Assembly: GCA_036172245.1 (NCBI GenBank)
Contig: JAYWIR010000078.1
Location: 1 to 64,000 of the forward strand
Length of the DNA: 64,000 nt
Reading direction: 5' to 3'
Source: Raillietiella orientalis
Lineage: Eukaryota
Part shown: one piece after another, positions 1 to 51,350 of the stretch
Layout of the letters: each line of letters opens with the position of its first letter
Position numbering within the stretch: position 1 is the stretch's first letter
Notes under the pieces: model-generated
What the model saw: the letters and a program-made list of their open reading frames with translations, nothing else
The model's database searches: none
What the model was told of the DNA's origin: nothing
Program-made: the position numbers and the translations under genes

Positions 1-3000
1 GAGCGTTCCAAATGAAGGCAACCGCCTACCTGGTCGACCGGGAAGCCTTCCTTTTCCTCTTAGCAGGGAGGGATGCACTCTGTCTGTGCTGCTTCCATTG
101 GAGGGTGGACGTTTTTTTTTTTTTGTCCTTTTTTTTTTTTTCCTCTTCCTTCTTGCTTGGCTTTTCCGCTACCTGGAAATTTTATGAGTAACGAAGTTGC
201 ATGGAAAACATGCCCGTTGCAGCCCTTAGCGCAAGGATACTACTTTTTGAGGATAGCGACCGTAAAAATATTGCGATCTGCAACGTGGATTCGGGGACAT
301 GGGAAGTACATGAGGGATGTTCTTTACCGAACGTTACTTGGGGGATGGATTGCTCCATGAGAGCGGCGTGTGCGGAAACCGGTGGTCGGGGTGGTTACAG
401 GAATGGTTGAGGAAGAGACTCGAGCGTTCCAAATGAGGCGAACCGCCTACCTGGTCGACCGGGAAGCTGTCCTTTCCCTCTCAGCAGGGAGGGGTTGCAC
501 TCTGTGTGTGCTGCTTCCATTGGAGGGTGGACGTTTTTTTTTTTTGTGTCCTTTTTTTTTTTCTCCTCTTCCTTTTTGGTTGCTTTGCACCGCTACCTGG
601 AAATTGCATGAGTAACGAAGTTGCATGGATAACATGCCCGTTGCAGCCCTTAGCGCAAGGATACTACTTTTTGAGGATAGCGACCGTAAAAATATTGCGA
701 TCTGCAACGTGGATTCGGGGACATGGGAAGTACATGAGGGATGTTCTTTACCGAACGTTACTTGGGGGATGGATTGCTCCCTGAGAGCCGCGTGTGCGGA
801 AACCGGTGGTCGAAGTGGTTACAGGGATGATTACAGCAGAGACTCGAGCGTTCCAAATGAGGGCAACCGCCTACCTGGTCGACCGGGAAGCCGTCCTTTT
901 CCTCTCAGCAGGGAGGGATGCACTCTGTGTGTGCTGCTTCCATTGGAGGGTGGACGTTTTTTTTTTTTGTGTCCTTTTTTTTTTTCTCCTCTTCCTTTTT
1001 GGTTGCTTTGCACCGCTACCTGGAAATTGCATGAGTAACGAAGTTGCATGGATAACATGCCCGTTGCAGCCCTTAGCGCAAGGATACTACTTTTTGAGGA
1101 TATCGACCGTAAAAATATTGCGATCTGCAACGTGGATTCGGGGACATGGGAAGTACATGAGGGATGTTCTTTACCGAACGTTACTTGGGGGATGGATTGC
1201 TCCATGAGAGCGGCGTGTGCGGAAACCGGTGGTCGGGGTGGTTACAGGAATGGTTGAGGAAGAGACTCGAGCGTTCCAAATGAGGCGAACCGCCTACCTG
1301 GTCGACCGGGAAGCTGTCCTTTCCCTCTCAGCAGGGAGGGGTTGCACTCTGTGTGTGCTGCTTCCATTGGAGGGTGGACGTTTTTTTTTTTTGTGTCCTT
1401 TTTTTTTTTCTCCTCTTCCTTTTTGGTTGCTTTGCACCGCTACCTGGAAATTGCATGAGTAACGAAGTTGCATGGATAACATGCCCGTTGCAGCCCTTAG
1501 CGCAAGGATACTACTTTTTGAGGATAGCGACCGTAAAAATATTGCGATCTGCAACGTGGATTCGGGGACATGGGAAGTACATGAGGGATGTTCTTTACCG
1601 AACGTTACTTGGGGGATGGATTGCTCCCTGAGAGCCGCGTGTGCGGAAACCGGTGGTCGAAGTGGTTACAGGGATGATTACAGCAGAGACTCGAGCGTTC
1701 CAAATGAGGGCAACCGCCTACCTGGTCGACCGGGAAGCCGTCCTTTTCCTCTCAGCAGGGAGGGATGCACTGTGTGTGTGCTGCTTCCATTGGAGGGTGG
1801 ACGTTTTTTTTTTTTGTGTCCTTTTTTTTTTTCTCCTCTTCCTTTTTGGTTGCTTTGCACCGCTACCTGGAAATTGCATGAGTAACGAAGTTGCATGGAT
1901 AACATGCCCGTTGCAGCCCTTAGCGCAAGGATACTACTTTTTGAGGATAGCGACCGTAAAAATATTGCGATCTGCAACGTGGATTCGGGGACATGGGAAG
2001 TACATGAGGGATGTTCTTTACCGAACGTTACTTGGGGGATGGATTGCTCCATGAGAGCGGCGTGTGCGGAAACCGGTGGTCGGGGTGGTTACAGGAATGG
2101 TTGAGGAAGAGACTCGAGCGTTCCAAATGAGGCGAACCGCCTACCTGGTCGACCGGGAAGCTGTCCTTTCCCTCTCAGCAGGGAGGGGTTGCACTCTGTG
2201 TGTGCTGCTTCCATTGGAGGGTGGACGTTTTTTTTTTTTGTGTCCTTTTTTTTTTTCTCCTCTTCCTTTTTGGTTGCTTTGCACCGCTACCTGGAAATTG
2301 CATGAGTAACGAAGTTGCATGGATAACATGCCCGTTGCAGCCCTTAGCGCAAGGATACTACTTTTTGAGGATATCGACCGTAAAAATATTGCGATCTGCA
2401 ACGTGGATTCGGGGACATGGGAAGTACATGAGGGATGTTCTTTACCGAACGTTACTTGGGGGATGGATTGCTCCATGAGAGCGGCGTGTGCGGAAACCGG
2501 TGGTCGGGGTGGTTACAGGGATGATTACGGCAGAGACTCGAGCGTTCCAAATGAGGGCAACCGCCTACCTGGTCGACCGGGAAGCTGTCGTTTTCCTCTC
2601 AGCAGGGAGGGGTTGCACTCTGTGTGTGCTGCTTCCATTGGAGGATGGACGTTTTTTTTTTTTGTGTCCTTTTTTTTTTTCTCCTCTTCCTTTTTGGTTT
2701 CTTTGCACCGCTACCTGGAAATTGCATGAGTAACGAAGTTGCATGGATAACATGCCCGTTGCAGCCCTTAGCGCAAGGATACTACTTTTTGAGGATAGCG
2801 ACCGTAAAAATATTGCGATCTGCAACGTGGATTCGGGGACATGGGAAGTACATGAGGGATGTTCTTTACCGAACGTTACTTGGGGGATGGATTGCTCCCT
2901 GAGAGCCGCGTGTGCGGAAACCGGTGGTCGAAGTGGTTACAGGGATGATTACAGCAGAGACTCGAGCGTTCCAAATGAGGGCAACCGCCTACCTGGTCGA

Positions 3001-6000
3001 CCGGGAAGCCGTCCTTTTCCTCTCAGCAGGGAGGGATGCACTGTGTGTGTGCTGCTTCCATTGGAGGGTGGACGTTTTTTTTTTTGTGTCCTTTTTTTTT
3101 TTCTCCTCTTCCTTTTTGGTTGCTTTGCACCGCTACCTGGAAATTGCATGAGTAACGAAGTTGCATGGATAACATGCCCGTTGCAGCCCTTAGCGCAAGG
3201 ATACTACTTTTTGAGGATATCGACCGTAAAAATATTGCGATCTGCAACGTGGATTCGGGGACATGGGAAGTACATGAGGGATGTTCTTTACCGAACGTTA
3301 CTTGGGGGATGGATTGCTCCATGAGAGCGGCGTGTGCGGAAACCGGTGGTCGGGGTGGTTACAGGAATGGTTGAGGAAGAGACTCGAGCGTTCCAAATGA
3401 GGCGAACCGCCTACCTGGTCGACCGGGAAGCTGTCCTTTCCCTCTCAGCAGGGAGGGGTTGCACTCTGTGTGTGCTGCTTCCATTGGAGGGTGGACGTTT
3501 TTTTTTTTTGTGTCCTTTTTTTTTTCTCCTCTTCCTTTTTGGTTGCTTTGCACCGCTACCTGGAAATTGCATGAGTAACGAAGTTGCATGGATAACATGC
3601 CCGTTGCAGCCCTTAGCGCAAGGATACTACTTTTTGAGGATAGCGACCGTAAAAATATTGCGATCTGCAACGTGGATTCGGGGACATGGGAAGTACATGA
3701 GGGATGTTCTTTACCGAACGTTACTTGGGGGATGGATTGCTCCCTGAGAGCCGCGTGTGCGGAAACCGGTGGTCGAAGTGGTTACAGGGATGATTACAGC
3801 AGAGACTCGAGCGTTCCAAATGAGGGCAACCGCCTACCTGGTCGACCGGGAAGCCGTCCTTTTCCTCTCAGCAGGGAGGGATGCACTGTGTGTGTGCTGC
3901 TTCCATTGGAGGGTGGACGTTTTTTTTTTTTGTGTCCTTTTTTTTTTTCTCCTCTTCCTTTTTGCTTGGTCTTTTCCGCTACCTGGAAATTGCATGAGTA
4001 ACGAAGTTGCATGGATAACATGCCCGTTGCAGCCCTTAGCGCAAGGATACTACTTTTTGAGGATAGCGACCGTAAAAATATTGCGATCTGCAACGTGGAT
4101 TCGGGGACATGGGAAGTACATGAGGGATGTTCTTTACCGAACGTTACTTGGGGGATGGATTGCTCCATGAGAGCGGCGTGTGCGGAAACCGGTGGTCGGG
4201 GTGGTTACAGGAATGGTTGAGGAAGAGACTCGAGCGTTCCAAATGAGGCGAACCGCCTACCTGGTCGACCGGGAAGCTGTCCTTTCCCTCTCAGCAGGGA
4301 GGGGTTGCACTCTGTGTGTGCTGCTTCCATTGGAGGGTGGACGTTTTTTTTTGTGTCCTTTTTTTTTTCTCCTCTTCCTTTTTGGTTGCTTTGCACCGCT
4401 ACCTGGAAATTGCATGAGTAACGAAGTTGCATGGATAACATGCCCGTTGCAGCCCTTAGCGCAAGGATACTACTTTTTGAGGATAGCGACCGTAAAAATA
4501 TTGCGATCTGCAACGTGGATTCGGGGACATGGGAAGTACATGAGGGATGTTCTTTACCGAACGTTACTTGGGGGATGGATTGCTCCCTGAGAGCGGCGTG
4601 TGCGGAAACCGGTGGTCGAAGTGGTTACAGGGATGTTGAGGAAGACCGAGCGTTCCAAATGAAGGCAACCGCCTACCTGGTCGACCGGGAAGCCTTCCTT
4701 TCTTAGCAGGGAGGGATGCACTCTGTCTGTGCTGCTTCCATTGGAGGATGGACCTTTTTTTTTTTTTTGTCCTTTTTTTTTTTTTCCTCTTCCTTCTTGC
4801 TTGGCTTTCTCCGCTACCTGGAAATTTTATGAGTAACGAAGTTGCACGGAAAACATGTCCGTTGCAGCCCTTAGCGCAAGGGTACCACTTTTTGAGGATA
4901 GCGATCGTTGAAATATTGCTTTCTTCAACGTGGATTCGGGGACATGGAGAGTACATGAGGGACGTTCTTTACCGAACGTTTCGTGGGGGGATGGATTGCT
5001 CCTTGAGAGCGGCGTGTGCGCAAACCGGTGGTCGGGGTGGTTACAGGGATGGTTGCAGGACAGACACGAGCGTTCCAAATGAAGGCAACCGCCTACCTGG
5101 TCGACCGGGAAGCCTTCCTTTTCCTCTTAGCAGGGAGGGATGCACTCTGTCTGTGCTGCTTCCATTGGAGGATGGACGTTTTTTTTTTTTTGTCCTTTTT
5201 TTTTTTTTTCCTCTTCCTTCTTGCTTGGCTTTCTCCGCTACCTGGAAATTTTATGAGTAACGAAGTTGCACGGAAAACATGTCCGTTGCAGCCCTTAGCG
5301 CAAGGGTACCACTTTTTGAGGATAGCGAACGTCGAAATATTGCTTTCTTCAACGTGGATTCGGGAACAGGGAGAGTACATGAGGGATGTTCTTTACCGAA
5401 CGTTTCGTGGGGAGATGGATTGCTCCTTGAGAGCGGCGTGTGCGTAAACCGGTGGTCGGGGTGGTTCCAGGGATGGTTACAGCAGAGACTCGAGCGTTCC
5501 AAATGAGGGCAACCGCCTACCTGGTCGACCGGGAAGCCGTCCTTTTCCTCTCAGCAGGGAGGGATGCACTGTGTGTGTGCTGCTTCCATTGGAGGGTGGA
5601 CGTTTTTTTTTTGTGTCCTTTTTTTTTTTCTCCTCTTCCTTTTTGGTTGCTTTGCACCGCTACCTGGAAATTGCATGAGTAACGAAGTTGCATGGATAAC
5701 ATGCCCGTTGCAGCCCTTAGCGCAAGGATACTACTTTTTGAGGATAGCGACCGTAAAAATATTGCGATCTGCAACGTGGATTCGGGGACATGGGAAGTAC
5801 ATGAGGGATGTTCTTTACCGAACGTTACTTGGGGGATGGATTGCTCCATGAGAGCGGCGTGAAACCGGTGGTCGGGTGGTTACAGGAATGGTTGAGGAAG
5901 AGACTCGAGCGTTCCAAATGAGGCGAACCGCCTACCTGGTCGACCGGGAAGCTGTCTTCCTCTCAGCAGGGAGGGTTGCACTGTGTGTGTGCTGCTTCCA

Positions 6001-6253
6001 TTGGAGGGTGGACGTTTTTTTTTTGTGTCCTTTTTTTTTTTCTCCTTGGTTGCTTTGCACCGCTACCTGGAAATTGCATGAGTAACGAAGTTGCATGGAT
6101 AACATGCCCGTTGCAGCCCTTAGCGCAAGGATACTACTTTTTGATGATATCGACCGTAAAAATATTGCGATGTGCAACGTGGATTCGGGGACATGGGGAG
6201 TACATGAGGGATGTTCTTTACCGAACGTTTCGTCGGGGGATGGATTGCTCCCA
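1..6253 (+). repeat. ~423-bp tandem satellite array (about 14.8 copies, truncated by window start); left arm of large inverted repeat
   Basis: Motif gagcgttccaaatga recurs at 1, 422, 846, 1269, 1693, 2116, 2540 and onward (period 422-424). Each unit carries two long T tracts separated by gtgtcc. Repeated ORF translations in the track recur with the same period. Confidence 0.97.
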
Positions 6254-7865
6254 TGGAGAACCACGGGTGGGGAAGCCGGTGGCCGGGTCGGTTCGGTAGG
6301 TGGATTTGCAGGATGGTCCGAGGAGTGAGTAGAGTGTTCCCACACATCGTAATGGTTTACCTTGTCGTGCGGCTGCTGTCCTCTGCATGTCACGTTGGAT
6401 GGGCATAGGGTTCAGCAGTTGCGTGCGGTGTTTGCAAAAATTCTGTTTTCCTGATCTCGAAGGCATTGTTCCTCCCTTTAAGGACTTGTGCCCTGTTTCT
6501 TCGCTGCAGTTGTTCCTCCTATTTGCAGCACACTTCCATTCCACGCTGTGAATTTTGTCTGTCGTTAATGAGAAATAATCTGATTGTGGGATATGTGGTT
6601 TCTATGGTTTTTCTTTTTATTTGAGTTTTCAATTGCGCATAATTCTCCGTTTGCTTTTTTAATTGTTGGATTTTAATTTAGTTTCCCTCAGAGAATGGTT
6701 GTTCTGGCAACGACTACTTTGATCATTCGGATTTGACGGAGCTGTTTTTACTGAAGCTGAAAAGGCAGAAAGATTTGACATTAAAGTTGTTATATGGTTT
6801 TCGTGATTTCACTCTTTGTGCTACCACTTTTCGGGATAACTTGCCATTGATCGTTGCAGAAACCGGCGAGGTTCTCTCCAATACCCATAATGGAGGGTAA
6901 AACGAAACAAATATTAACGTAAGAAATTCAAAATTGAGAAGAAGGTGCTGTTTATAGGGATAGGGATGGATCGGGATGAACCTCCGTTCGTCCTGTTCGT
7001 TCCCCTGCATCCTCTTGTGGATGTTGACAAGTGTTGCATTGGAATTTCTCCGGTGGAGTGGTTTTGATGTCCTGTCGAAAAAGATCGTTGTCCAGTGCAT
7101 GGCATCGCTGCTGTTTTTCTTTCTCCTTTTGGCGTTCTACCGTGTCACTTTAGCGCGAACACTGCAGAAAACTGCCAGAGACGCGGCGGGGTCAGTGGAT
7201 CACATCAGTAGAGGCGCCATCTATTGGTTTTATGGTCGCCTGCTCGAAGATTCAGAATGGGCAAGAGTCGATTCGAAAGATCACGGATGGCGACGCAGTG
7301 CAATACGAGATGCGGGAAGGTTTCCCTTTCACCGCTCTCTGCACAACTTGCAACCAAACTCCCTTCTGTCGTGTGGGGGAGGAGCGCTCTGCATAGCATT
7401 CCTCGATGCAGGGAGAAAAGAAACGCCGTCTGTTGCCACTGCATTGTAAGTGTCCCGCTGTTCCAATGTGCCGGGGTCACTCCACCTCCTCTGGTTGTGT
7501 TGCGAGCAGGTCGACCCTGGTGATGAGCTCTTTAGGCGCGACACTCGTGGTCGCAGCGTCCATTACCTGCCGAGCTTTCCACGCCTTCATTCGTTTTTTC
7601 CTGTCTCCAATGAGGCAGGACATTTTTCACGATGCTCGTTCGTTTCTGTCTGCAGCGTTTTGGAGGATCTTGGGGGATGAAGGAGGGCCAAGGCAATTTG
7701 CGTGGGTTGTTTACCATCCACTGCAGGGGCTATCGAGTGTGAGGTTCCTTGTCGGTTGCAGGCGGATTCCGCCTCGCTCGAGCCCTCGTGTTTTCCCCAT
7801 GCGCAACCTGACTCCTGAAGCCAGTTCGCGTGGAGGCAGTAGATTGACGTGTTGTTTTTCATGAG
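6254..7865 (+). repeat. Non-tandem 1.6-kb segment of the left inverted-repeat arm (reverse complement of 41562-43180)
   Basis: ORFs 6976..7449(+) vs 41987..42460(-) and 7450..7680(+) vs 41756..41986(-) are near-identical on opposite strands. Similarity ends at ...tttttcatgag (7865 / 41562). Confidence 0.95.
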
Positions 7866-9183
7866 GAAACCTCGTTTCTATTATGTTTCTTAATCTTTTT
7901 AGTTTTCGCATTCTTAACAATTATACTTAATTGAACTATAGTCTTATGTATAACTGTTGATTTTGTGGATCAAAAATCTAAATCCATAAAAGCAATTGGT
8001 TAAATCATCAAGAATAGATACTCCTTTCGAATCCGACATTAAGATTTTCATAACTTAATTGATGAATAAGATCTAACTATAAGTATGGTATCCCTACAAC
8101 TAGATGTAACTAACTACCGTATCCCGATACCTGATTACGAAGAACCGTGCAAAAAGAGCATAACGCTCTAGTGTATGCATAATAATACATCGTAAGGAAG
8201 TCAGGATAAGCCCTAATTACCTCATTTTACATTTACAGTAGACTTTCGTATAACGCAGATTCGTATAACAAGCGGGGGAAGAAGGCGATAACCCTCGTAG
8301 AACGCGTTAAAACAGTCCTGTGCGTCTCTGCAGGGAGGCGGTCCCCCCCCCCCCGCACTCATTCACTAATTGTCTAGAAGGTACCCTTGTATGTTTATTG
8401 CTTAAATAAACGGCCCGGCATCAACGGGTTCAAACCTGTACGTCTCTGTGGATAAATTTGAATTTTGCGGTGCACAGTTCATTTGTTTCTCAAGAGAGTA
8501 CGAACGCATGATTTAAGTTCGTTGAATGCCACATTATTCACATTTTCGTGGCTAACATAGGTGAAAAATATACATTCTTCAACAACGAGCACGATAAAGC
8601 TGAGGGTATCGAATCGTTTAAATGAATTAAACATTAAGGAGTTTTTTTTGTTTTTTTTAACTCTTTATTTTTTTTTTCCTTTTGCTTTAAAGTGAAATCA
8701 TAAATATGCGACTCTTGTGATGTTTAGGATACATTTTGTATCTTTTATATATACTATCAATTATCCATGTGTACCTTATGGGACTCGGACAACGCAGAAT
8801 TAATCCCCGCGTAATATGAGAGCCTGTGGTACGATGAATAGCAACTTAAGTCACTCTTATGAACAACCATGCTGAGTTAATCCCCAGTAAACAATACATG
8901 CATATTTCTACACTCCACATTATGTCCTGAGTCGGTCATCAAATAAAACTGCATAGCAATCCTTTTGCTTTGCAACTGGTTAGTAAAAATTGAGCAACTG
9001 CGATCATTTATAGTTGCACGAACCATCAGCAGAAATTTTGTGACAAGGAGGGTTGTGATTTTGGAATAGTGGCGTAAATCGTAAATACATTAGAACACAA
9101 GATTGAAAAAACAAACACGGTCCTCGAGAGCTACATTCATAACATCCTCAAAATTGAACTTATGTAGCACATATTTTCCATGA

Positions 9184-9924
9184 GAGTGCGTGGAGAATCG
9201 TGTTCACAAACTTATGCTGCACCAACTTGCAGAAGGATACAGGATTGCTACCAGGTACGTATATTTCGCCCCTTTCGTTTCGTTTCAAATTTCTGCCAGT
9301 CCTCATCATTAACGTTCACCCCTAATCCCAGGAGCGTTTTGTTTGCATATGCTGCCGGCAGTTTCGACATAGTGCACAAAAACAACGTAGCTCTCTTTGC
9401 ATTTACCTGTTGTCACTAAGGTTGACCAAATTGCAACGTAAGCAAAAACAAAAAGCGACCCAGAGGTTTTCTATAGGATCCAAACCAAACATGTTCCAAC
9501 TTACAAACTGCTAAGGAATGCAGTTTCAGAAATGACAACTCACAATATGGTGCTATGACTGGAGAGATCAACTGCTTGATGTTCATTTCCCCCTCAGTTT
9601 AAGACTTACCATCACTAACATTGCTCCACTTTATCTTCCCATCCACACAACCAACTAGTTGTTTAGGGTGAAAAGTACAAGAGATCATCTGTAAAGGAGG
9701 CTGTTACCGAGGTCACTTTCAAATTCTGCAAGTCTGTTGCAAAATAAATTGAGCAAACAAGGACCATGACTGCACTGTTTGAAAATGTACTTTTCTGGAC
9801 ACCAAAAAATTATTTAAAAGAGATGCATTCTTGCTTGCAGGATTATCCCATTCCTGATTCCGATTTCTTTGCAAGAAAACTATTTTCTCACAGAAGTCAA
9901 AACCATTCTGGTTTTGGATACTGA
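9184..9924 (+). CDS. Candidate unidentified multi-exon gene (5' end not resolved)
   Basis: Exons ..9254, 9332-9386, 9421-9437, 9477-9549, 9667-9711, 9754-9786 and 9841-9924 join through GT..AG introns in consistent phase into an open frame (..ECVENRVHKLMLHQLAEGYRIATRSVLFAYAAGSFDIVHK..DYPIPDSDFFARKLFSHRSQNHSGFGY*). No homology recognised; some splice sites are weak. Confidence 0.25.
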
Positions 9925-10150
9925 ATCTGTGTTTCAAAATAAATTTTCACATGAAATCATTCTGATTATAGAATTTATTGGAAAAACCGAACGTTTTGGA
10001 CTCGTTTCAGGTATTTACGCAAATCTAGAAATCATTATTGCAAGTAACATGCTGATAGCTGTCCGAAAATTGTTATAAGAATTGCACTATGCTGCATACC
10101 CTCATTAGCTCATGGGTTGTGAACTCAAATCACAGGTTCAAACAGTGAAT

Positions 10151-33784: not shown

Positions 33785-33972
33785 TTCGTCCGTTTTACCA
33801 CACCGGGGGCAGCGGGGCACACGAAAAGCAGTGGTCGGAGGACGGGGGCCACAAAAGTGTTCCAAATGACGGCTCGCTCTTGGAACGGGCCGAGCACCGA
33901 CTCTGCCTTCTGGAGGCACTCGGACAACGCTTCCGTAGGGGAAATGTCCCCCATAGGCACCCCTAGGTACCG
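33785..33972 (-). mobile_element. Short L1/Tx1-type ORF2 (post-RT) fragment, third subfamily
   Basis: YLGVPMGDISPTEALSECLQKAESVLGPF..AVIWNTFVAPVLRPLLFVCP..KRTK is homologous to the neighbouring RT fragments, with a ~7-codon internal deletion. Confidence 0.85.
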
Positions 33973-37256: not shown

Positions 37257-37309
37257 CAACCGACCTCCTGCGATCCTCTCGATCTCCTGGACGTCTCCTC
37301 GGAATCGGG

Positions 37310-38175: not shown

Positions 38176-38177
38176 TC

Positions 38178-40200: not shown

Positions 40201-40239
40201 CGATTTTTCTTATATTTTTTTTCATTCTTTTTCTTTTTT

Positions 40240-40815
40240 TGTTTTTGCTCTTTTTTGTCTTTTTCTTCGTGACCGACGCATGTTTGATAGGATGGCGGCC
40301 GTAAAAGGGGCACACGAACTGGATGTGTCCCTTCGCGCCACAACGGTAGCACTCGATGTCGGGGCACCCCCTCTTCCGGTGCTGCGACTTGCCACAGTGA
40401 GCGCAAACGAGGGGCTTCCCTCGTACCAGACGTCGACGGGCAACCCGTCGGTCTGAGATCCAATCTGTGGGGTAGCGTTCCCCCTTCGCGGACGGTAATG
40501 CGCGCTGCTGCGAGGCCGCTCATCAGACCTATTGGTCCTTGGTATGCAGGGAAGACGCAGAGCTTCGCCCACAGTGCGTGCACTCCGCCAATATCCGGTG
40601 GACCGCCACCATGGTCGTCCTTACCGTGATGCCGGTGAAGTGCACGATCAGAAAACGGTCCTCCGTTACGGGGAAGAGCTGACGCCCTCCGATCACGATC
40701 GGGGTTCGCAATAGTCGCTGGACCATCGTCACAGCCGGAAATGTGCTGGAGACCACCAGGCGGCGAACGGATGTCACCGCGATGGCAGCCACGTACATCG
40801 GTGCAGCTGCAAGCT
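40240..40815 (-). mobile_element. Second, divergent ORF1 fragment of the same L1/Tx1-type family
   Basis: VQRLLRTPIVIGGRQLFPVTEDR (cf. VQRLLNTPITLEGRKLFPVTEDR) and frameshifted VDVWYEG..CAHCGKSQHRKRGCPDIECYRCGAKGHIQFVCP. Confidence 0.85.
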
Positions 40816-40819
40816 GGCA

Positions 40820-41227
40820 TCAGCTTGATGAGAAAACGAAGGAGATCGCCGGTATAGAGCGATGGGTTACAAATGAGTAGGAACGGTGAATCCCGGTGAC
40901 CCTAGTCCCCTGCCCTCCCTTATTTACTGAATTCTTGTTTTTTTCTTTATTCCCTGTGCCTGATCGCTTCGCAAATTTCCCGATGTTTTCCTTTTCTTCG
41001 ACTGGTTTCCGGTGCGTGCGGAACGTGTCCCAAGATCCCTGCCACAACCAACTCAATCTCATTTCTTTTTTTTTTTTGTCCCCTTGTCCCTCGCCCGTTC
41101 GGGACATCTAGTTTTCCCGGCCTGCGTCTCGGTGGACCTTCCCTTTTGAATATTGTATTCGGCGGTTGAGAACTTTTCCTCCCAACTGGTTATGGAAATG
41201 AACGCCTCGGCGTGACCGAGTGAAAAA
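40820..41227 (+). mobile_element. Short 3'-end fragment (ORF2 tail and 3' UTR) of the L1/Tx1-type family
   Basis: LDEKTKEIAGIERWVTNE* resembles REIAGTHRRF* and EDIACIHRRFTNS*. UTR shares cccaactggtt and ends aatgaacgcctcggcgtgaccgagtgaaaaa. Confidence 0.8.
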
Positions 41228-41234
41228 CCTTAAC

Positions 41235-42480
41235 GTCCGCCTGGTGGCAGGTGCGCGCGATATACGAGCTCACATTGTCAACGAGATGTGCGCAGCCATG
41301 CACACGCGCAACTTGGCTGGAGGTGCCGAGGGGTCGAACACCATTCGTCTCATGTCCCTCGACGACCACCTGTGCGCTCGGGTGGGAGATCGTGGAGCAC
41401 TCCCATCAGAGGGTGTCGGCTGTCGGTGGAGTTGCGGACTTCACGGTGCGAACCCGCAAGACCCCTGGCGAGCGAAAGGCAGCGAAGGATTGCCTTCGAT
41501 CGCCGGTGCATACGAAAGCAGCCTGGGCTATTGCGGCCATCAGCTGCACCACACGGCTGCTCTCATGAAAAACAACACGTCAATCCACTGCCCCCACGCG
41601 AAGTGTACTGTCTGGCTTTAGGAGCAAGGATGCGCATGGGGAAAAATCGAGGGCTCGAGCGAGGTGGAATGCGCCTGCACCCGACAAGGAACCTCACACT
41701 GGATAGCCCCTGCAGTGGATGGTAAACAACCCACGCAAATTGCCTTGGCCCTCCTTCATCCCCCAAGATCCTCCAAAACGCTGCAGACAGAAACGAACGA
41801 GCATCGTGAAAAATGTCCTGCCTCATTGGAGACAGGAAAAAACGAATGAAGGCGTGGAAAGCTCGGCAGGTAATGGACGCTGCGACCACGAGTGTCGCGC
41901 CTAAAGAGCTCATCACCAGGGTCGACCTGCTCGCAACACAACCAGAGGAGGTGGAGTGACCCCGGCACATTGGAACAGCGGGACACTTACAATGCAGTGG
42001 CAACAGACGGCGTTTCTATTCTCCCTGCATCGGGGAATGCTATGCAGAGCGCTCCTCCCCCACAGGACTGTGGGGAGTTTGCTTGCAAGTTGTGCAGAGA
42101 GCGGTGAAAGGGAAACCTTCCCGCATCTCGTATTGCACTGCGTCGCCATCCGTGATCTTTCGTATCGACTCTTGTCCATTCTGAATCTTCCAGCAGGCGA
42201 CCATAAAACCAATAGACGGCGCCTCTACTGATGTGATTCACTGACCCCGCCGCGTCTCTGGCAGTACTCTGCAGTGTTTGCGGAAAAGTGACACGGTAGA
42301 ACGCCAAAAGAAGAAAGAAAAACAGCAGGGATGCCATGCACTGAACAGCGATCTTTTTCGACAGGACATCAAAACCACTCCACCGGAGAAATTCCAATGC
42401 AACACTTGTCAACATCCACAAGAGGATGCAGGGGAACGAACAGGACGAACGGAGGTTCATCCCGATCCATCCCTATCCCT
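41235..42480 (+). pseudogene. Possible decayed multi-zinc-finger coding remnant (e.g. N-terminus of an RLE-type retroelement)
   Basis: Scattered CxxC-like motifs in broken frames: IHCPHAKC, FACKLCRER*KGNLPASRIALRRH, FQCNTCQH. GC-rich. No intact ORF. Confidence 0.25.
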
Positions 42481-43180
42481 ATAAACAGCACCTTCTTCTC
42501 AATTCTGAATTTCTTACGTTAATATTTGTTTCGTTTTACCCTCCATTATGGGTATTGGAGAGAACCTCGCCGGATTCTGCAACGATCAATGGCAAGTTAT
42601 CCCGAAAAGTGGTAGCACAAAGAGTGAAATCACGAAAACCATATAACAACTTTAATGTCAAATCTTTCTGCCTTTTCAGCTTCAGTAAAAACAGCTAAGT
42701 CAAATCCGAATGATCAAAGTAGTCGTTGCCAGAACAACCATTCTCTGAGGGAAACTAAATTAAAATCCAACAATTAAAAAAGCAAACGGAGAATTATGCG
42801 CAATTGAAAACTCAAATAAAAAGAAAAACCATAGAAACCACATATCCCACAATCAGATTATTTCTCATTAACGACAGACAAAATTCACAGCGTGGAATGG
42901 AAGTGTGCTACAAATAGGAGGAACAACTGCAGCGAAGAAACAGGGCACAAGTCCTTAAAGGGAGGAACAATGCCTTCGAGATCAGGAAAACAGAATTTTT
43001 GCAAACACCGCACGAAACTGCTGAAACCTATGCCCATCCCACGTGACATGCAGAGGACAGCAGCCGCACGACAAGGTAAACCATTACGATGTGTGGGAAC
43101 CCTCTACTCACTCCTCGGACCATCCTGCAAATCCACCTACCGAACCGACCCGGCCACCGGCTTCACCCACCCGTGGTTCT
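41562..43180 (-). repeat. Non-tandem segment of the right inverted-repeat arm
   Basis: Reverse complement of 6254-7865 with scattered substitutions and a 9-bp indel near 41603. Confidence 0.95.
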
Positions 43181-46100
43181 CCATGGGAGCAATCCATCCC
43201 CCCACGAAACGTTCGGTAAAGAACATCCCTCATGTACTCCCCATGTCCCCGAATCCACGTTGAAGATCGCAATATTTTAACGGTCGATATCCTCAAAAAG
43301 TAGTATCCTTGCGCTAAGGGCTGCAACGGGCATGTTATCCATGCAACTTCGTTACTCATGCAATTTCCAGGTAGCGGTGCAAAGCAACCAAAAAGGAAGA
43401 GGAGAAAAAAAAAAAGGACACAAAAAAAAAAAACGTCCACCCTCCAATGGAAGCAGCACACACACAGTGCATCCCTCCCTGCTGAGAGGAAAAGGACGGC
43501 TTCCCGGTCGACCAGGTAGGCGGTTGCCCTCATTTGGAACGCTCGAGTCTCTGCTGTAATCATCCCTGCAACCACTTCGACCACCGGTTTCCGCACACGC
43601 GGCTCTCAGGGAGCAATCCATCCCCCAAGTAACGTTCGGTAAAGAACATCCCTCATGTACTTCCCATGTCCCCGAATCCACGTTGCAGATCGCAATATTT
43701 TTACGGTCGCTATCCTCAAAAAGTAGTATCCTTGCGCTAAGGGCTGCAACGGGCATGTTATCCATGCAACTTCGTTACTCATGCAATTTTCAGGTAGCGG
43801 AGAAAACCAAGCAAAAAGGAAGAGGAGAAAAAAAAAAAGGACAACAAAAAAAAAACAAACGTCCATCCTCCAATGGAAGCAGCACACACAGAGTGCATCC
43901 CTCCCTGCTAAGAGGAAAACGACAGCTTCCCGGTCGACCAGGTAGGCGTTTGCCTTCATTTGGAACGCTCGTGTCTCTCCGTCACCCATCCCTGTAACCA
44001 GCCCGACCACCGGTTTCCGCACACGCGGCTCTCAGGGAGCAATCCATCCCCCAAGTAACGTTCGGTAAAGAACATCCCTCATGTACTTCCCATGTCCTCG
44101 AATCGACGTTGCAGATCGCAATATTTTTACGGTCGCTATCCTCAAAATGTAGTATCCTTGCGCTAAGGGCTGCAACGGGCATGTTATCCATGCAACTTCG
44201 TTACTCATGCAATTTCCAGGTAGCGGTGCAAAGAAACCAAAAAGGAAGAGGAGAAAAAAAAAAAGGACACGGAAAAAAAAAACGTCCATCCTCCAATGGA
44301 AGCAGCACAGACAGAGTGCATCCCTCCCTGCTGAGAGGAAAAGGACAGCTTCCCTGTCGACCAGGTAGGCGGTTGCCCTCATTTGGAACGCTCGAGTCTC
44401 TTCCTCAACCATCCCTGTAACCAGCCCGACCACCGGTTTCCGCACACGCGGCTCTCAGGGAGCAATCCATCCCCCAAGTAACGTTCGGTAAAGAACATCC
44501 CTCATGTACTTCCCATGTCCCCGAATCGACGTTGCAGATCGCAATATTTTAACAGTCGATATCCTCAAAAAGTAGTATCCTTGCGCTAAGGGCTGCAACG
44601 GGCATGTTATCCATGCAACTTCGTTACTCATGCAATTTCCAGGTAGCGGTGCAAAGAAACCAAAAAGGAAGAGGAGAAAAAAAAAAAGGACACAAAAAAA
44701 AAAAACGTCCATCCTCCAATGGAAGCAGCACACACAGAGTGCAACCCCTCCCTGCTGAGAGGAAAACGACAGCTTCCCGGTCGACCAGGTAGGCGGTTGC
44801 CCTCATTTGGAACGCTCGAGTCTCTGCTGTAATCATCCCTGTAACCACCCCGACCACCGGTTTCCGCACAGGCGGCTCTCAGGGAGCAATCCATCCCCCA
44901 AGTAACGTTCGGTAAAGAACATCCCTCATGTACTTCCCATGTCCCCGAATCGACGTTGCAGATCGCAATATTTTTACGGTCGCTATCCTGAAAAAGTAGT
45001 ATCCTTGCGCTAAGGGCTGCAACGGGCATGTTATCCATGCAACTTCGTTACTCATGCAATTTCCAGGTAGCGGTGCAAAGAAACCAAAAAGGAAAAGGAG
45101 AAAAAAAAAAGGACACAAAAAAAAAACGTCCATCCTCCAATGGAAGCAGCACACACAGAGTGCAACCCCTCCCTGCTGAGAGAACGACAGCTTCCCGGTC
45201 GACCAGGTAGGCGGTTGCCCTCATTTGGAACGCTCGAGTCTCTGCTGTAATCATCCCTGTAACCACTTCGACCACCGGTTTCCGCACACGCGGCTCTCAG
45301 GGAGCAATCCATCCCCCAAGTAACGTTCGGTAAAGAACATCCCTCATGTACTTCCCATGTCCCCGAATCGACGTTGCAGATCGCAATATTTTAACAGTCG
45401 ATATCCTCAAAAAGTAGTATCCTTGCGCTAAGGGCTGCAACGGGCATGTTATCCATGCAACTTCGTTACTCATGCAATTTCCAGGTAGCGGTGCAAAGAA
45501 ACCAAAAAGGAAGAGGAGAAAAAAAAAAAGGACACAAAAAAAAAAAACGTCCATCCTCCAATGGAAGCAGCACACACAGAGTGCAACCCCTCCCTGCTGA
45601 GAGGAAAACGACAGCTTCCCGGTCGACCAGGTAGGCGGTTGCCCTCATTTGGAACGCTCGAGTCTCTGCTGTAATCATCCCTGTAACCACTTCGACCACC
45701 GGTTTCCGCTCACGCCGCTCTCATGGAGCAATCCATCCCCCAAGTAACGTTCGGTAAAGAACATCCCTCATGTACTTCCCATGTCCCCGAATCGACGTTG
45801 CAGATCGCAATATTTTAACAGTCGATATCCTCAAAAAGTAGTATCCTTGCGCTAAGGGCTGCAACGGGCATGTTATCCATGCAACTTCGTTACTCATGCA
45901 ATTTCCAGGTAGCGGTGCAAAGAAACCAAAAAAGAAAAGGAGAAAAAAAAAAGGACACAAAAAAAAAAAACGTCCATCCTCCAATGGAAGCAGCACACAC
46001 AGAGTGCAACCCCTCCCTGCTGAGAGGAAAACGACAGCTTCCCGGTCGACCAGGTAGGCGGTTGCCCTCATTTGGAACGCTCGAGTCTCTGCTGTAATCA

Positions 46101-49100
46101 TCCCTGTAACCACCCCGACCACCGGTTTCCGCACACGCGGCTCTCAGGGAGCAATCCATCCCCCAAGTAACGTTCGGTAAAGAACATCCCTCATGTACTT
46201 CCCATGTCCCCGAATCGACGTTGCAGATCGCAATATTTTAACAGTCGCTATCCTGAAAAAGTAGTATCCTTGCGCTAAGGGCTGCAACGGGCATGTTATC
46301 CATGCAACTTCGTTACTCATGCAATTTCCAGGTAGCGGTGCAAAGAAACCAAAAAAGAAAAGGAGAAAAAAAAAAAGGACACAAAAAAAAAAACGTCCAT
46401 CCTCCAATGGAAGCAGCACACACAGAGTGCAACCCCTCCCTGCTGAGAGGAAAACGACAGCTTCCCGGTCGACCAGGTAGGCGGTTGCCCTCATTTGGAA
46501 CGCTCGAGTCTCTTCCTCAACCATCCCTGTAACCAGCCCGACCACCGGTTTCCGCACACGCGGCTCTCAGGGAGCAATCCATCCCCCAAGTAACGTTCGG
46601 TAAAGAACATCCCTCATGTACTTCCCATGTCCCCGAATCGACGTTGCAGATCGCAATATTTTAACAGTCGATATCCTCAAAAAGTAGTATCCTTGCGCTA
46701 AGGGCTGCAACGGGCATGTTATCCATGCAACTTCGTTACTCATGCAATTTCCAGGTAGCGGTGCAAAGAAACCAAAAAGGAAGAGGAGAAAAAAAAAAGG
46801 ACACAAAAAAAAAAACGTCCATCCTCCAATGGAAGCAGCACACACAGAGTGCAACCCCTCCCTGCTGAGAGGAAAACGACAGCTTCCCGGTCGACCAGGT
46901 AGGCGGTTGCCCTCATTTGGAACGCTCGAGTCTCTGCTGTAATCATCCCTGTAACCACCCCGACCACCGGTTTCCGCTCACGCCGCTCTCATGGAGCAAT
47001 CCATCCCCCAAGTAACGTTCGGTAAAGAACATCCCTCATGTACTTCCCATGTCCCCGAATCGACGTTGCAGATCGCAATATTTTAACAGTCGATATCCTC
47101 AAAAAGTAGTATCCTTGCGCTAAGGGCTGCAACGGGCATGTTATCCATGCAACTTCGTTACTCATGCAATTTCCAGGTAGCGGTGCAAAGAAACCAAAAA
47201 GGAAGAGGAGAAAAAAAAAAAAGACACAAAAAAAAAAAACGTCCATCCTCCAATGGAAGCAGCACACACAGAGTGCAACCCCTCCCTGCTGAGAGGAAAA
47301 CGACAGCTTCCCGGTCGACCAGGTAGGCGGTTGCCCTCATTTGGAACGCTCGAGTCTCTGCTGTAATCATCCCTGTAACCACCCCGACCACCGGTTTCCG
47401 CACAGGCGGCTCTCAGGGAGCAATCCATCCCCCAAGTAACGTTCGGTAAAGAACATCCCTCATGTACTTCCCATGTCCCCGAATCGACGTTGCAGATCGC
47501 AATATTTTTACGGTCGCTATCCTGAAAAAGTAGTATCCTTGCGCTAAGGGCTGCAACGGGCATGTTATCCATGCAACTTCGTTACTCATGCAATTTCCAG
47601 GTAGCGGTGCAAAGAAACCAAAAAGGAAGAGGAGAAAAAAAAAAAAGACACAAAAAAAAAACGTCATCCTCCAATGGAAGCAGCACACACAGAGTGCAAC
47701 CCCTCCCTGCTGAGAGGAAAACGACAGCTTCCCGGTCGACCAGGTAGGCGGTTGCCCTCATTTGGAACGCTCGAGTCTCTGCTGTAATCATCCCTGTAAC
47801 CACCCCGACCACCGGTTTCCGCACACGCGGCTCTCAGGGAGCAATCCATCCCCCAAGTAACGTTCGGTAAAGAACATCCCTCATGTACTTCCCATGTCCC
47901 CGAATCGACGTTGCAGATCGCAATATTTTTACGGTCGCTATCCTGAAAAAGTAGTATCCTTGCGCTAAGGGCTGCAACGGGCATGTTATCCATGCAACTT
48001 CGTTACTCATGCAATTTCCAGGTAGCGGTGCAAAGAAACCAAAAAGGAAGAGGAGAAAAAAAAAAAGACACAAAAAAAAAAAACGTCCATCCTCCAATGG
48101 AAGCAGCACACACAGAGTGCAACCCCTCCCTGCTGAGAGGAAAACGACAGCTTCCCGGTCGACCAGGTAGGCGGTTGCCCTCATTTGGAACGCTCGAGGC
48201 TCTGCTGTAATCATCCCTCTAACCACTTCGACCACCGGTCTCCGTTCACGCCGCTCTCATGGAGCAATCCATCCCCCAAGTAACGTTCTGTAAAGAACTT
48301 CCCTCATGTACTTCCCATGTCCCCGAATCGACGTTGCAGATCGCAATATTTTAACAGTCGATATCCTCAAAAAGTAGTATCCTTGCGCTAAGGGCTGCAA
48401 CGGGCATGTTATCCATGCAACTTCGTTACTCATGGAATTTCCAGGTAGCGGTGCAAAGAGACCAAAAAAGAAAAGGAGAAAAAAAAAAAGGACACAAAAA
48501 AAAAAAACGTCCATCCTCCAATGGAAGCAGCACACACAGAGTGCAACCCCTCCCTGCTGAGAGGAAAACGACAGCTTCCCGGTCGTCCAGGTAGGCGGTT
48601 GCCCTCATTTGGAACGCTCGAGTCTCTGCTGTAATCATCCCTGTAACCACTTCGACCACCGGTTTCCGCTCACGCCGCTCTCATGGAGCAATCCATCCCC
48701 CAAGTAACGTTCGGTAAAGAACATCCCTCATGTACTTCCCATGTCCCCGAATCGACGTTGCAGATCGCAATATTTTAACAGTCGATATCCTCAAAAAGTA
48801 GTATCCTTGCGCTAAGGGCTGCAAAGGGCATGTTATCCATGCAACTTCGTTATTCATGCAATTTCCAGGTAGCGGTGCAAAGCGACCAAAAAGGAAGAGG
48901 AGAAATAAAAAAAGGACACAGAAAAAAAAAACGTCCATCCTCCAATGGAAGCAGCACACACAGAGTGCATCCCTCCCTGCTGAGATGAGAAGGAAGGCTC
49001 CCCGGTCGACCAGGTAGGCGGTTGCCCTCATTTGGAACGCTCGAGTCTCTTCCTCAACCATCCCTGTAACCAGCCCGACCACCGGTTTCCGCACACGCGG

Positions 49101-51350
49101 CTCTCAGGGAGCAATCCATCCCCCAAGTAACGTTCGGTAAAGAACATCCCTCATGTACTTCCCATGTCCCCGAATCGACGTTGCAGATCGCAATATTTTT
49201 ACGGTCGCTATCCTGAAAAAGTAGTATCCTTGCGCTAAGGGCTGCAACGGGCATGTTATCCATGCAACTTCGTTACTCATGCAATTTCCAGGTAGCGGTG
49301 CAAAGAAACCAAAAAGGAAGAGGAGAAAAAAAAAAAGGACACAAAAAAAAAAAACGTCCATCCTCCAATGGAAGCAGCACACACAGAGTGCATCCCTCCC
49401 TGCTAAGAGCAAAACGACAGCTTCCCGGTCGACCAGGTAGGCGGTTGCCCTCATTTGGAACGCTCGAGTCTCTTCCTCAACCATCCCTGTAACCAGCCCG
49501 ACCACCGGTTTCCGCACACGCGGCTCTCAGGGAGCAATCCATCCCCCAAGTAACGTTCGGTAAAGAACATCCCTCATGTACTTCCCATGTCCCCGAATCG
49601 ACGTTGCAGATCGCAATATTTTAACAGTCGATATCCTCAAAAAGTAGTATCCTTGCGCTAAGGGCTGCAACGGGCATGTTATCCATGCAACTTCGTTACT
49701 CATGCAATTTCCAGGTAGCGGTGCAAAGAAACCAAAAAGGAAGAGGAGAAAAAAAAAAAGGACACGGAAAAAAAAAACGTCCATCCTCCAATGGAAGCAG
49801 CACACACAGAGTGCATCCCTTCCTGCTGAGATGAGAAGGAAGGCTCCCCGGTCGACCAGGTAGGCGGTTGCCCTCATTTGGAACGCTCGAGTCTCTTCCT
49901 CAACCATCCCTGTAACCACCCCGACCACCGGTTTCCGCACACGCCGCTCTCATGGAGCAATCCATCCCCCAAGTAACGTTCGGTAAAGAACATCCCTCAT
50001 GTACTTCCCATGTCCCCGAATCCACGTTGCAGATCGCAATATTTTTACGGTCGATATCCTCAAAAAGTAGTATCCTTGCGCTAAGGGCTGCAACGGGCAT
50101 GTTATCCATGCAACTTCGTTACTCATGCAATTTCCAGGTAGCGGTGCAAAGCAACCAAAAAGGAAGAGGAGAAAAAAAAAAGGACACAAAAAAAAAAAAC
50201 GTCCACCCTCCAATGGAAGCAGCACACACACAGTGCATCCCTCCCTGCTGAGAGGAAAAGGACGGCTTCCCGGTCGACCAGGTAGGCGGTTGCCCTCATT
50301 TGGAACGCTCGAGTCTCTTCCTCAACCATTCCTGTAACCACTTCGACCACCGGTTTCCGCTCACGCCGCTCTCATGGAGCAATCCATCCCCCAAGTAACG
50401 TTCGGTAAAGAACATCCCTCATGTACTTCCCATGTCCCCGAATCCACGTTGCAGATCGCAATATTTTTACGGTCGCTATCCTCAAAAAGTAGTATCCTTG
50501 CGCTAAGGGCTGCAACGGGCATGTTATCCATGCAACTTCGTTACTCATGCAATTTCCAGGTAGCGGTGCAAAGCAACCAAAAAGGAAGAGGAGAAAAAAA
50601 AAAAGGACACCAAAAAAAAAAACGTCCATCCTCCAATGGAAGCAGCACACATAGAGTGCATCCCTCCCTGCTGACAGGAAAAGGACAGCTTCCCTGTCGA
50701 CCAGGTAGGCGGTTGCCCTCATTTGGAACGCTCGAGTCTCTGCTGTAATCATTCATGTAACCACTTCGACCACCGGTTTCCGCTCACGCCGCTCTCATGG
50801 AGCAATCCATCCCCCAAGTAACGTTCGGTAAAGAACATCCCTCATGTACTCTCCATGTCCCCGAATCCACGTTGATGAAAGCAATGTTTTAACGCTCGCT
50901 ATCCTCAAAGAGTTGTATTCTTGCGCTAAGAGCTGCAACGGGCATGATTTCGAGGCAGCTTCGGTGCTCATAAAGTTTCCAGGTAGCCAAGTAAACCACG
51001 CAAAAAGGAAGAGGAGAAAAAAAAAGAGGACGCGGAAAAAAAAAACGTCCATCCTCCAATGGAAGCATCAGATGCAGAGTGTATCCATCGCTGCTGAGAG
51101 CAAAAATACAGCTTCCCGGTCTCCGAGGTAGGCTTCTGCCTTGAGTTGGAATTTACGTGTGATTGCCCGGTCCATCCAGTTAATCCATACTTCGAGCCAC
51201 CCTTCCCACGGCTTCCTATTCCCTTACTCTCTCCAGGAGGAATCCTTCTCCTGCAAATTGTTCGAAACTGAATATCCCCCATGTTTCCCCCATCTCCCCG
51301 TGTCCTCTTTGAAGTTGGGAATTTCTTTCCGGTCGATTTCCAAAGGAAAT
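43181..51350 (-). repeat. ~423-bp tandem satellite array in inverted orientation (about 19 copies including degenerate terminal units)
   Basis: ggagcaatccatccccc recurs every ~421-424 bp from 43186 to ~50800; degenerate copies continue to ~51350. Confidence 0.97.

Follow-up and report, generated by a model that had tools for sequence, protein, structure and literature searches.

The window analysed here, a stretch of 64,000 nucleotides from Raillietiella orientalis (contig JAYWIR010000078.1), contains three genes enclosed between two inverted arms. Each arm consists of a 423-bp tandem array and a 1.58-kb non-repetitive segment, termed U. The features are listed below with their window coordinates, and with the strand where one applies.

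1..6287, minus strand: left 423-bp array (TRF: period 424, 14.9 copies in view), extending upstream of the window
6288..7865, plus strand: left copy of U, the inner domain of the arm (1.58 kb, non-repetitive, non-coding)
7866..33780: host-type single-copy segment with three genes (25.9 kb, GC 34.9%, CpG observed/expected 0.55)
10157..19396, minus strand: WDR59, a GATOR2 subunit (tblastn; Pfam WD40, RWD and zinc-ribbon matches)
24919..27024, plus strand: TBC1D12/TBC1D14-like RabGAP (Pfam RabGAP-TBC, E 7e-26 and 1e-18)
28704..29434, plus strand: RPP40, the RNase P/MRP 40-kDa subunit (coordinates cover only the exons with Pfam matches)
33781..41561: GC-rich, CpG-rich repeat-type block forming the right inner junction (7.8 kb, GC 58%)
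33778..33972, minus strand: L1-like reverse-transcriptase fragment (Pfam; tblastn/blastx with LINE proteins)
34216..35229, minus strand: L1-like reverse-transcriptase fragment (Pfam; tblastn/blastx with LINE proteins)
35172..36248, plus strand: L1-like reverse-transcriptase fragment, head to head with the fragment at 34216-35229
38135..38476, minus strand: endonuclease match below the Pfam cut-off
40094..40519, minus strand: zinc knuckle (Pfam)
41562..43148, minus strand: right copy of U (1587 bp, including an additional 9 bp)
43149..51133, plus strand: right 423-bp array (TRF: period 423, 18.9 copies)
51134..52187: spacer past the right array (about 1.05 kb), including an A-rich stretch around 51640-51790
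52188..59396: outer satellite array of 643-bp repeats (11.2 copies), unrelated in sequence to U and to the 423-bp monomer

The host segment is AT-rich and CpG-depleted, shows no self-similarity elsewhere in the window, and carries three intron-bearing genes that, judged from their sequence, are apparently intact. WDR59 has many short introns, and its tblastn alignment with a bivalve WDR59 of 1000 residues covers residues 35-1000 of the latter; its best named relatives are bivalve WDR59 proteins at 44-54% identity. The tblastn exon map places the conserved part of the TBC gene at 25311-27024. The 5' limit of this gene is uncertain, as 24919 is the start of an ORF (24919-25350) with no Pfam match, and the best named match of its product is a jellyfish TBC1 domain family member 12-like sequence (58% identity). 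For RPP40, Pfam Ribonuc_P_40 was matched in three ORFs (E 1.4e-6, 1e-7 and 0.03). Pfam, tblastn and the best relatives thus bear out the initial annotation, which had placed WDR59, a TBC1D14-like gene and RPP40 in the 33.7 kb between the arms, with TBC1D12-like now the best named match for the second gene. The CpG observed/expected ratio of 0.55 in this core shows signs of germline gene-body methylation. The description of the entire 33.7-kb interior as an island of conserved genes holds for the 25.9-kb gene segment only, the remainder (33781-41561) being repeat-type DNA with LINE fragments.

This GC-rich block at the right inner junction had been overlooked at first. It holds at least three L1-like reverse-transcriptase fragments and abuts the right arm. 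Between 36.3 and 41.56 kb, the zinc knuckle and the sub-threshold endonuclease match are its only recognisable features, and a 281-aa ORF on the minus strand beside the right arm (40059-40901) gave 0 matches among 1.84 billion representatives. We considered whether the block is one full-length minus-strand LINE reaching up to the arm boundary and found this poorly supported: blastx gave reverse-transcriptase pieces only, the endonuclease match was sub-threshold and the 281-aa ORF had no matches.

Comparison of the two arms by blastn aligned positions 1-7865 with 49465-41562 as inverted copies at 94.6% identity over 7925 columns, a match far too large to have arisen by chance. Because the left arm is cut by the start of the window, its length is a lower bound. 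Within the non-repetitive portion, 6269-7824 is complementary to 41612-43167 at 97% over 1556 nt. This alignment supports the inverted arms originally proposed at 1-7865 and 41562 to about 51350, except that the right array stops at 51133-51151. The tandem repeat maps and the 97% identity of U likewise uphold the proposed composition of each arm, a 423-bp array plus the same 1.6-kb segment. Beyond the right array, the spacer and the outer array exist as described, with their sizes corrected from about 800 bp to about 1.05 kb and from a period of 644 to 643; the outer array gave a single weak Pfam match, below the cut-off.

The array/U junctions of both arms fall at an identical monomer phase, position 90 of the 423-bp reference monomer. 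Because both arms share the same junction, a single ancestral array/U junction lies behind both copies. Homology between the arms breaks off abruptly at the equivalent base in each, 7865 on the left and 41562 on the right. Past this point the inner flanks are unrelated, with AT-rich host DNA on the left and the GC-rich block on the right, and the interior is not palindromic. In orientation, length and identity, the arms accord with an inverted low-copy repeat pair, for which two inverted copies of 1 kb or more in the same molecule, with identity of at least about 90-95%, are expected.

The two arrays have no position-by-position correspondence, each having been remodelled separately after duplication. 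In-register monomer identity between the arrays was 94.25%, and offsets of -3 to +3 gave values just as high (94.2-95.0%). A higher-order repeat, an 846-bp a/b dimer, is confined to the left array, where the identity matrix showed monomers L7, L9, L12 and L14 to be mutually about 100% identical, as are L8, L11 and L13. The right array has no dimer repeat; it carries arm-private variants according to the variant table, and its last monomer is degenerate, matching the remaining monomers of this array at 85-88% identity. A coding or RNA role for the arrays was rejected, each monomer having about one stop per frame and no Rfam or tRNA match. An exact-match scan of metagenome contigs with a 31-mer found in 32 of the monomers gave 0 matches, and a literature search on the 423-bp satellite found nothing related.

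We next compared the two copies of U, which are separated by 42 substitutions plus a single 9-bp indel, in agreement with the initial observation that the arms differ by substitutions, an indel and array variants. These differences are clustered: their index of dispersion was 3.1, a value matched in 0 of 10,000 permutations, with 21 differences in 7088-7420 versus 9 in 6288-7087. The longest difference-free tract measures 317 bp (p = 0.002), and exact shared tracts extend to 316 bp. Such clustering fits patchy gene conversion between the arms, and consensus polishing of the repeat or uneven mutation could also be its source. As to function, U contains 15 ORFs of 70 aa or longer; the seven of these that were scanned gave no Pfam match, and the Rfam and tRNA searches returned 0 families and 0 hits. 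The longest ORF shared by the copies has 14 non-synonymous versus 5 synonymous differences. A coding or RNA function for U was therefore rejected: its ORFs show no purifying selection and the substitutions look neutral. No internal or terminal repeats were detected in U, no third copy lies within the 64-kb window, and a metagenome contig scan for exact matches to a 30-mer of U gave 0 matches.

The left copy of U has a GC content of 48.5% and a CpG observed/expected ratio of 0.91. With GC 48% and a ratio of about 0.9, U resembles the arrays and is unlike host DNA (0.55). Because its composition is of the repeat type, U may be part of a repeat unit rather than formerly unique host sequence, a reading that would fit a transposon-derived origin equally well.

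Support for the arms was sought in one low-coverage public contig run, which contained 7% of the sampled words and whose short contigs, none of them long enough to span an arm, were compared with positions 1-20000. One contig carried the right-arm letters at all six listed differences (7152, 7153, 7157, 7169, 7170 and 7219), and another was purely of the left-arm type. Because contigs of both types were found, both copies of U exist in the reads. An 11-bp insertion at 14487 sets the run apart from the window and marks it as a different haplotype. A 1256-bp skip in one run contig (12390 to 13647) was dismissed as a repeat artefact, the contig having only 20 letters on its shorter side and a depth of 19. 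The word depth of the two U contigs was 2.7 and 2.5, compared with 2.1-4 for four gene contigs; U is thus probably not a high-copy element, in so far as a few short contigs from one low-coverage run, whose depth is not copy number, can indicate.

These contigs bear on whether the arms arose during assembly, by a false inverted join within the satellite arrays or by inclusion of a reversed haplotig. Satellite arrays are classic misjoin sites, the left array contains 423-bp copies that are about 100% identical, and no contig among those listed from the run bridges the inner junction at 7865. However, the copies of U have diverged (42 substitutions, one 9-bp indel) and both versions are present in run contigs, which speaks against an artefact and agrees with the earlier statement that the arms are not a simple assembly mirror. 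Artefactual foldback chimeras take the form of nearly perfect palindromes and lack a unique spacer of 33.7 kb. Here the inner flanks are unrelated and the interior is not palindromic, so that the arms do not represent alleles of a single locus either. We consider an assembly artefact quite unlikely.

The position of the GC-rich block raises the possibility of a link to LINE activity. U and the 423-bp monomers could be the monomeric 5' region of a minus-strand LINE at 33.8-41.56 kb, or LINE-mediated breakage and repair could have made the right junction and the inverted duplication. The right arm adjoins the LINE fragments, and the minus-strand zinc knuckle, weak endonuclease and reverse transcriptase occur in the order expected of one element reading away from the arm. 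Inverted duplications beside L1 insertions offer a parallel, at least in the human cell systems covered by the relevant passages of one report (10.1101/2024.12.14.628481). On the left side, however, U passes directly into host DNA with no LINE body. Target-primed reverse transcription would not yield such a junction. In addition, strand composition flips at 41562 (the block has a negative AT skew, U and the array a positive one), the endonuclease match lies below the Pfam cut-off with none found by blastx, the ORF adjoining the arm lacks homologues, and no target-site duplication was found. Neither inner junction showed a target-site duplication, microhomology or a shared k-mer, and none was seen around the GC-rich block. 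A LINE-linked origin of the arms is, on balance, very unlikely.

The layout also resembles that of fission-yeast-type centromeres, in which inverted inner repeats and, outside them, tandem arrays surround a core, so that the structure could be functional chromosome architecture like the inverted-repeat-type regional centromeres of some fungi. The core of such a centromere is largely gene-free and occupied by the centromeric histone, whereas the core here carries three housekeeping genes with the CpG signature of gene-body methylation. We know of no inverted-repeat-type regional centromere in animals and regard this explanation as extremely improbable.

The arms might instead be transposon-derived, either as terminal inverted repeats of one very large foldback element or as two independent inverted insertions of a satellite-carrying element. 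FB and Galileo are foldback transposons whose modular terminal inverted repeats hold tandem repeats. Passages of the report on another such element, Tetris of Drosophila virilis, describe terminal repeats of up to 1.7 kb with repeats of about 220 bp, a short non-coding middle, 8-10-bp target-site duplications and multiple copies, and note that foldback tandem repeats can expand into satellite arrays (PMC4079207). The arms share the plan given there, running from tandem repeats through the non-repeated inner domain U and lying inverted around a middle segment; the tandem repeats and inner domain are present in both arms, and a candidate outer domain (the spacer at 51134-52187) is in view on the right only. 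The repeat-type composition shared by U and the arrays, distinct from that of host DNA, and the sharp end of homology at the same base in both arms also favour a transposon. Unlike Tetris as those passages portray it, the present arms are at least 7.9 kb long, enclose a 33.7-kb middle with host genes and are apparently of low copy number.

Foldback middles are short and non-coding or bear a transposase, whereas this one would comprise 33.7 kb with LINE debris and three intron-bearing genes of host-type composition, and a scan of 288 ORFs found no transposase. Apart from the two arm copies, the window contains no match to U, which also lacks internal and terminal repeats; its contig depth in the public run is like that of single-copy genes (contig depth not being copy number), and the inner ends share no target-site duplication or k-mer. 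Taken together, these observations make a transposon origin unlikely. A giant foldback unit that engulfed 26 kb of host DNA, or arms that toggle the orientation of the segment, we judge highly improbable; if either were true, an animal genome would carry three housekeeping genes within a cassette that is mobile or flips recurrently.

Overall, the structure is probably a locus-specific inverted low-copy duplication that arose as a by-product of rearrangement, with unique parts patch-converted and no dedicated function. Among the three readings offered initially, an inversion scar and a substrate for inversion and conversion stay the most plausible, as the clustered differences in U fit conversion. 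The foldback that captured genes is disfavoured because of the host-type gene segment, the single-copy-like depth of U, the lack of a further U elsewhere in the window and the lack of visible terminal or target-site features. A passive duplication, either a by-product of inversion or a substrate for recombination, is thus the best reading.

Under this passive-duplication reading, a block comprising the end of a 423-bp array and 1.58 kb of adjoining non-coding U would have come to be present twice in opposite orientation, the two copies bracketing 25.9 kb of host DNA and the 7.8-kb LINE-bearing GC-rich block. The second copy would stem from a rearrangement, such as a staggered-break inversion or a template switch during replication or repair, whose right junction was possibly LINE-associated. 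The left array would then have gained its dimer higher-order repeat and the right array its private variants, and the unique parts would later have swapped patches by gene conversion. The resulting structure presumably has no dedicated function. Were the arms to recombine, the 33.7-kb interior could be inverted with all three genes left unbroken. The structure is real but of an ordinary kind among inverted duplications, in which flipping of the genes could occur.

If the arms do recombine, the locus would be a compact, sequence-resolved invertebrate case of a gene-bearing segment inverting without gene damage. Otherwise, it would be a further inverted segmental duplication bordering a repeat-rich domain, useful mainly as a warning to those assembling this locus or studying its synteny. 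The arm copies, being of the same age, allow fast satellite turnover within arms to be compared side by side with patchy gene conversion of adjoining unique DNA between arms.

Inverted segmental duplications provide one set of known systems for comparison. In a human study (10.1101/2021.12.20.472354), recurrent inversions reportedly occur between inverted segmental duplications, and herring inversion breakpoints carry inverted duplications of 8-60 kb, according to passages of PMC11499932. As in herring and human, two kb-scale copies with 95-97% identity lie inverted around a single-copy gene-bearing segment; their patchy identity fits conversion between the copies, and the arms are a possible substrate for non-allelic homologous recombination. 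Unlike those duplications, most of each arm here is independently turned-over satellite, the stable unique part amounts to only 1.58 kb, and the interior is small (33.7 kb). The second set comprises the inverted duplications at Drosophila yakuba inversion breakpoints, for which passages of Ranz et al. 2007 give sizes up to 1.9 kb (PMC1885836). The arms would exceed these, at 7.9 kb or more, if the arrays were copied too, and the duplicated sequence is of the repeat type rather than a gene. Nevertheless, as in the staggered-break duplications portrayed in those passages, an inverted copy stands on either side of the segment, ends sharply and bears no transposon signature, and U alone (1.58 kb) lies inside the range reported there, up to about 1.9 kb.

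Aligning the window against itself with blastn returned an inverted match, 7925 columns long and 94.6% identical, between 1-7865 and 49465-41562. A repeat finder recovered the non-repetitive core (6269-7824 vs. 41612-43167; 97% complementary over 1556 nt, with arms 33,787 nt apart). These results confirm the large inverted repeat claimed by the initial annotation, whose arm coordinates also hold, with slight corrections to the outer end of the right arm (array to 51133) and to the spacer (~1.05 kb). Each arm consists of a 423-bp tandem array and an inner, non-repetitive segment of ~1.58 kb, here called U. Tandem Repeats Finder assigned both arrays to one satellite, and the base skews of the left array mirror those of the right.

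Features of the arms and the outer right flank
1-6287, left satellite array, period 424, 14.9 copies, truncated where the window begins (Tandem Repeats Finder)
43149-51133, right satellite array, period 423, 18.9 copies (Tandem Repeats Finder)
Between the 423-bp right array and the 643-bp array, spacer of ~1.05 kb
52188-59396, 643-bp satellite array, 11.2 copies, GC 55%, related neither to U nor to the 423-bp satellite

Within the spacer lies a degenerate, A-rich tract (51640-51790) that resembles poly(A) and includes short repeats of the AAAAG/AAACC type. Through the 643-bp satellite runs a long ORF (57811-58506) whose sole Pfam match is weak and does not reach the cut-off.

Mapping onto one reference monomer placed the array/U junction at monomer position 90 of 423 in both arms, which therefore descend from a single ancestral array/U junction. 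Pairwise alignment showed that arm homology stops at a matching base, 7865 on the left and 41562 on the right, beyond which lies AT-rich DNA on the left side and GC-rich DNA on the right. The arm structure is real, its anatomy is clear, and it belongs to a known kind.

The arrays have no position-by-position correspondence between arms: mean identity between left monomer i and right monomer i was 94.25%, and offsets of -3 to +3 gave 94.2-95.0%. The left array contains a higher-order repeat, an a/b dimer of 846 bp; among monomers L5-L15, mean identity is 97.9% at lag 2 versus 95.5% at lag 1. L7, L9, L12, and L14 are ~100% identical to each other, as are L8, L11, and L13 (423-bp copies); such near-identical dimer copies reflect either very recent local amplification or a polishing effect. 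The right array lacks a dimer period and carries variants rare or absent in the left. Together, the missing register, the left dimer, and the private right variants indicate either that the arrays were remodelled inside each arm after duplication or that only a short array piece was copied and then grew separately on each side.

The two copies of U (6288-7865 and 41562-43148) are separated by 42 substitutions and a single indel of 9 bp. Of 15 ORFs within 6221-7877 that reach 70 aa or more, the 7 U ORFs scanned gave no Pfam match; U also yielded no Rfam family, no tRNA, no internal direct or inverted repeat, and no similarity to the rest of the window. Both copies keep two ORFs of ~150-160 aa open; in the longest, 14 codon differences are non-synonymous and 5 synonymous, giving no sign of constraint. 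The composition of U (GC 48%, CpG observed/expected 0.85-0.91) resembles that of the arrays and the GC-rich block of the interior, unlike host DNA. Given the absence of Pfam, Rfam, and tRNA matches, the lack of constraint, and this composition, U is non-coding, repeat-type DNA.

The 43 differences are strongly clustered, with an index of dispersion of 3.1 in 100-bp bins, reached by none of 10,000 permutations. Twenty-one fall in 7088-7420, 12 substitutions and the indel in 7735-7841, and 9 in the first 800 bp; the longest difference-free tract measures 317 bp (p=0.002), and exact tracts common to both arms reach 316 bp. This is the pattern that would be expected if patchy gene conversion had acted between the arms, and uneven mutation or consensus polishing is a possible source of the same clustering.

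We compared the window over 1-20000 with contigs of X1, a low-coverage run and the one public run matching the window (7% of sampled words). A 151-base contig at 7110-7260 has six listed differences from the left arm (7152, 7153, 7157, 7169, 7170, and 7219) and carries the right-arm letter at 6/6, and the neighbouring contig at 7247-7397 is purely of left-arm type. Both arm versions are present in real reads; with the substitutions and indel in U, this upholds the earlier statement that the arms are not a simple assembly mirror. Two alleles of one locus joined back to back are argued against by the inner flanks, which are unrelated to each other, and by the interior, which is not palindromic. 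Word depth was 2.7 (7110-7260) and 2.5 (7247-7397) in the U contigs, 2.1-4 in four listed gene contigs, and 5 to 28 in array contigs, with one bin at 208; such depth, which is not copy number, weakly hints that U is not like a high-copy dispersed repeat. None of the X1 contigs listed for 1-20000 bridges 7865. Behind 14487, inside the span of WDR59, X1 carries an insertion of 11 bp, which indicates that its haplotype differs from the window. One contig apparently skips 1256 bp (12390 to 13647), with 20 letters on the shorter side and raised depth, probably a repeat artefact.

The interior comprises two compartments, 7866-33780 and 33781-41561. The first is AT-rich and CpG-depleted (GC 34.9%, CpG observed/expected 0.55) and carries three genes.

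Features of the interior
19396 down to 10157, minus strand, WDR59, exons aligning to bivalve WDR59 residues 35-1000, many short introns
25311-27024 (conserved part), plus strand, TBC1D12/TBC1D14-like Rab GTPase-activating protein gene
28704-29434, plus strand, RPP40, three ORFs between these positions, Pfam Ribonuc_P_40
33778-33972, minus strand, small L1-like reverse transcriptase fragment
34216-35229, minus strand, 5'-truncated L1-like reverse transcriptase fragment
35172-36248, plus strand, 5'-truncated L1-like reverse transcriptase fragment, head to head with the preceding one
40094-40519, minus strand, zinc-knuckle match (Pfam)

The TBC1D12/TBC1D14-like gene matches Pfam RabGAP-TBC (E 7e-26), and its best named match is a TBC1D12-like protein (58% identity). 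Between RPP40 and the GC-rich block, ~4 kb (29700-33780) have intermediate GC of up to ~45%, lower at both edges; an ORF there (30861-31328, 156 aa) has neither a Pfam match nor a convincing protein-atlas neighbour.

These genes bear on two other readings. Tetris, as excerpts of its description indicate (PMC4079207), has arms built alike, with an inner domain after the tandem repeats, and this layout would suit a foldback-type transposon. The proposal of a foldback-like unit that captured genes nevertheless fails on its middle domain, 33.7 kb with intron-bearing genes of host composition, and gains no copy-number support; because the left arm leaves the window, any foldback ends and target-site duplications would lie outside this view. 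The resemblance to a centromere-like architecture is only formal, because the core carries housekeeping genes.

The second compartment has a GC of 58% and is not CpG-depleted (CpG observed/expected 0.92), and contains at least three L1-like reverse transcriptase fragments. The two larger ones overlap at 35172-35229 and cover nearly equal residues (~230-615) of P0010, the LINE protein used as query, at a nucleotide identity of only ~74%. Within 36.3-41.56 kb, Pfam recognised nothing beyond the zinc knuckle and an endonuclease match below the cut-off, and a search of 1.84 billion representative proteins found no homologue of a 281-aa ORF adjoining the right arm. Retrotransposon-type debris, not gene DNA, adjoins the right arm; the "conserved-gene island" first described thus comprises 25.9 kb with genes and this 7.8 kb of debris. 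Two findings contradict the idea that U and the monomers form a LINE's 5' region: in the left arm, host DNA directly follows U, and strand composition flips at 41562.

Composition changes sharply between 7866-33780 and 1-7865, 33781-51133, and 52188-59396: the genes have a GC of 35% and CpG observed/expected of 0.55, and every repeat class (both satellites, U, and the LINE block) has a GC of 48-58% and CpG observed/expected of 0.85-0.92. Judged from base composition, these compartments would be consistent with gene bodies being methylated in the germline and these repeats not.

A passive inverted low-copy duplication is the best-supported reading. It may have arisen as a side product of a staggered-break inversion, or from a template switch during repair or replication; target-site duplication and microhomology were looked for at the junctions and not found. 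A LINE-associated break would be possible at the right junction, given the LINE-bearing block there, and excerpts of a study in human cell systems describe inverted duplications beside L1 insertions (10.1101/2024.12.14.628481). By analogy, the arms are candidate substrates for recombination inverting the interior, an exchange that would leave all three genes uncut. In the excerpts considered, the staggered-break model in Drosophila is accompanied by inverted duplications of up to ~1.9 kb at 17 of 29 inversions (PMC1885836), and in herring, inverted duplications of 8-60 kb at the breakpoints of inversions are proposed as substrates for inverting recombination (PMC11499932). Recombination between inverted arms is reportedly proposed for recurrent human inversions as well (10.1101/2021.12.20.472354).
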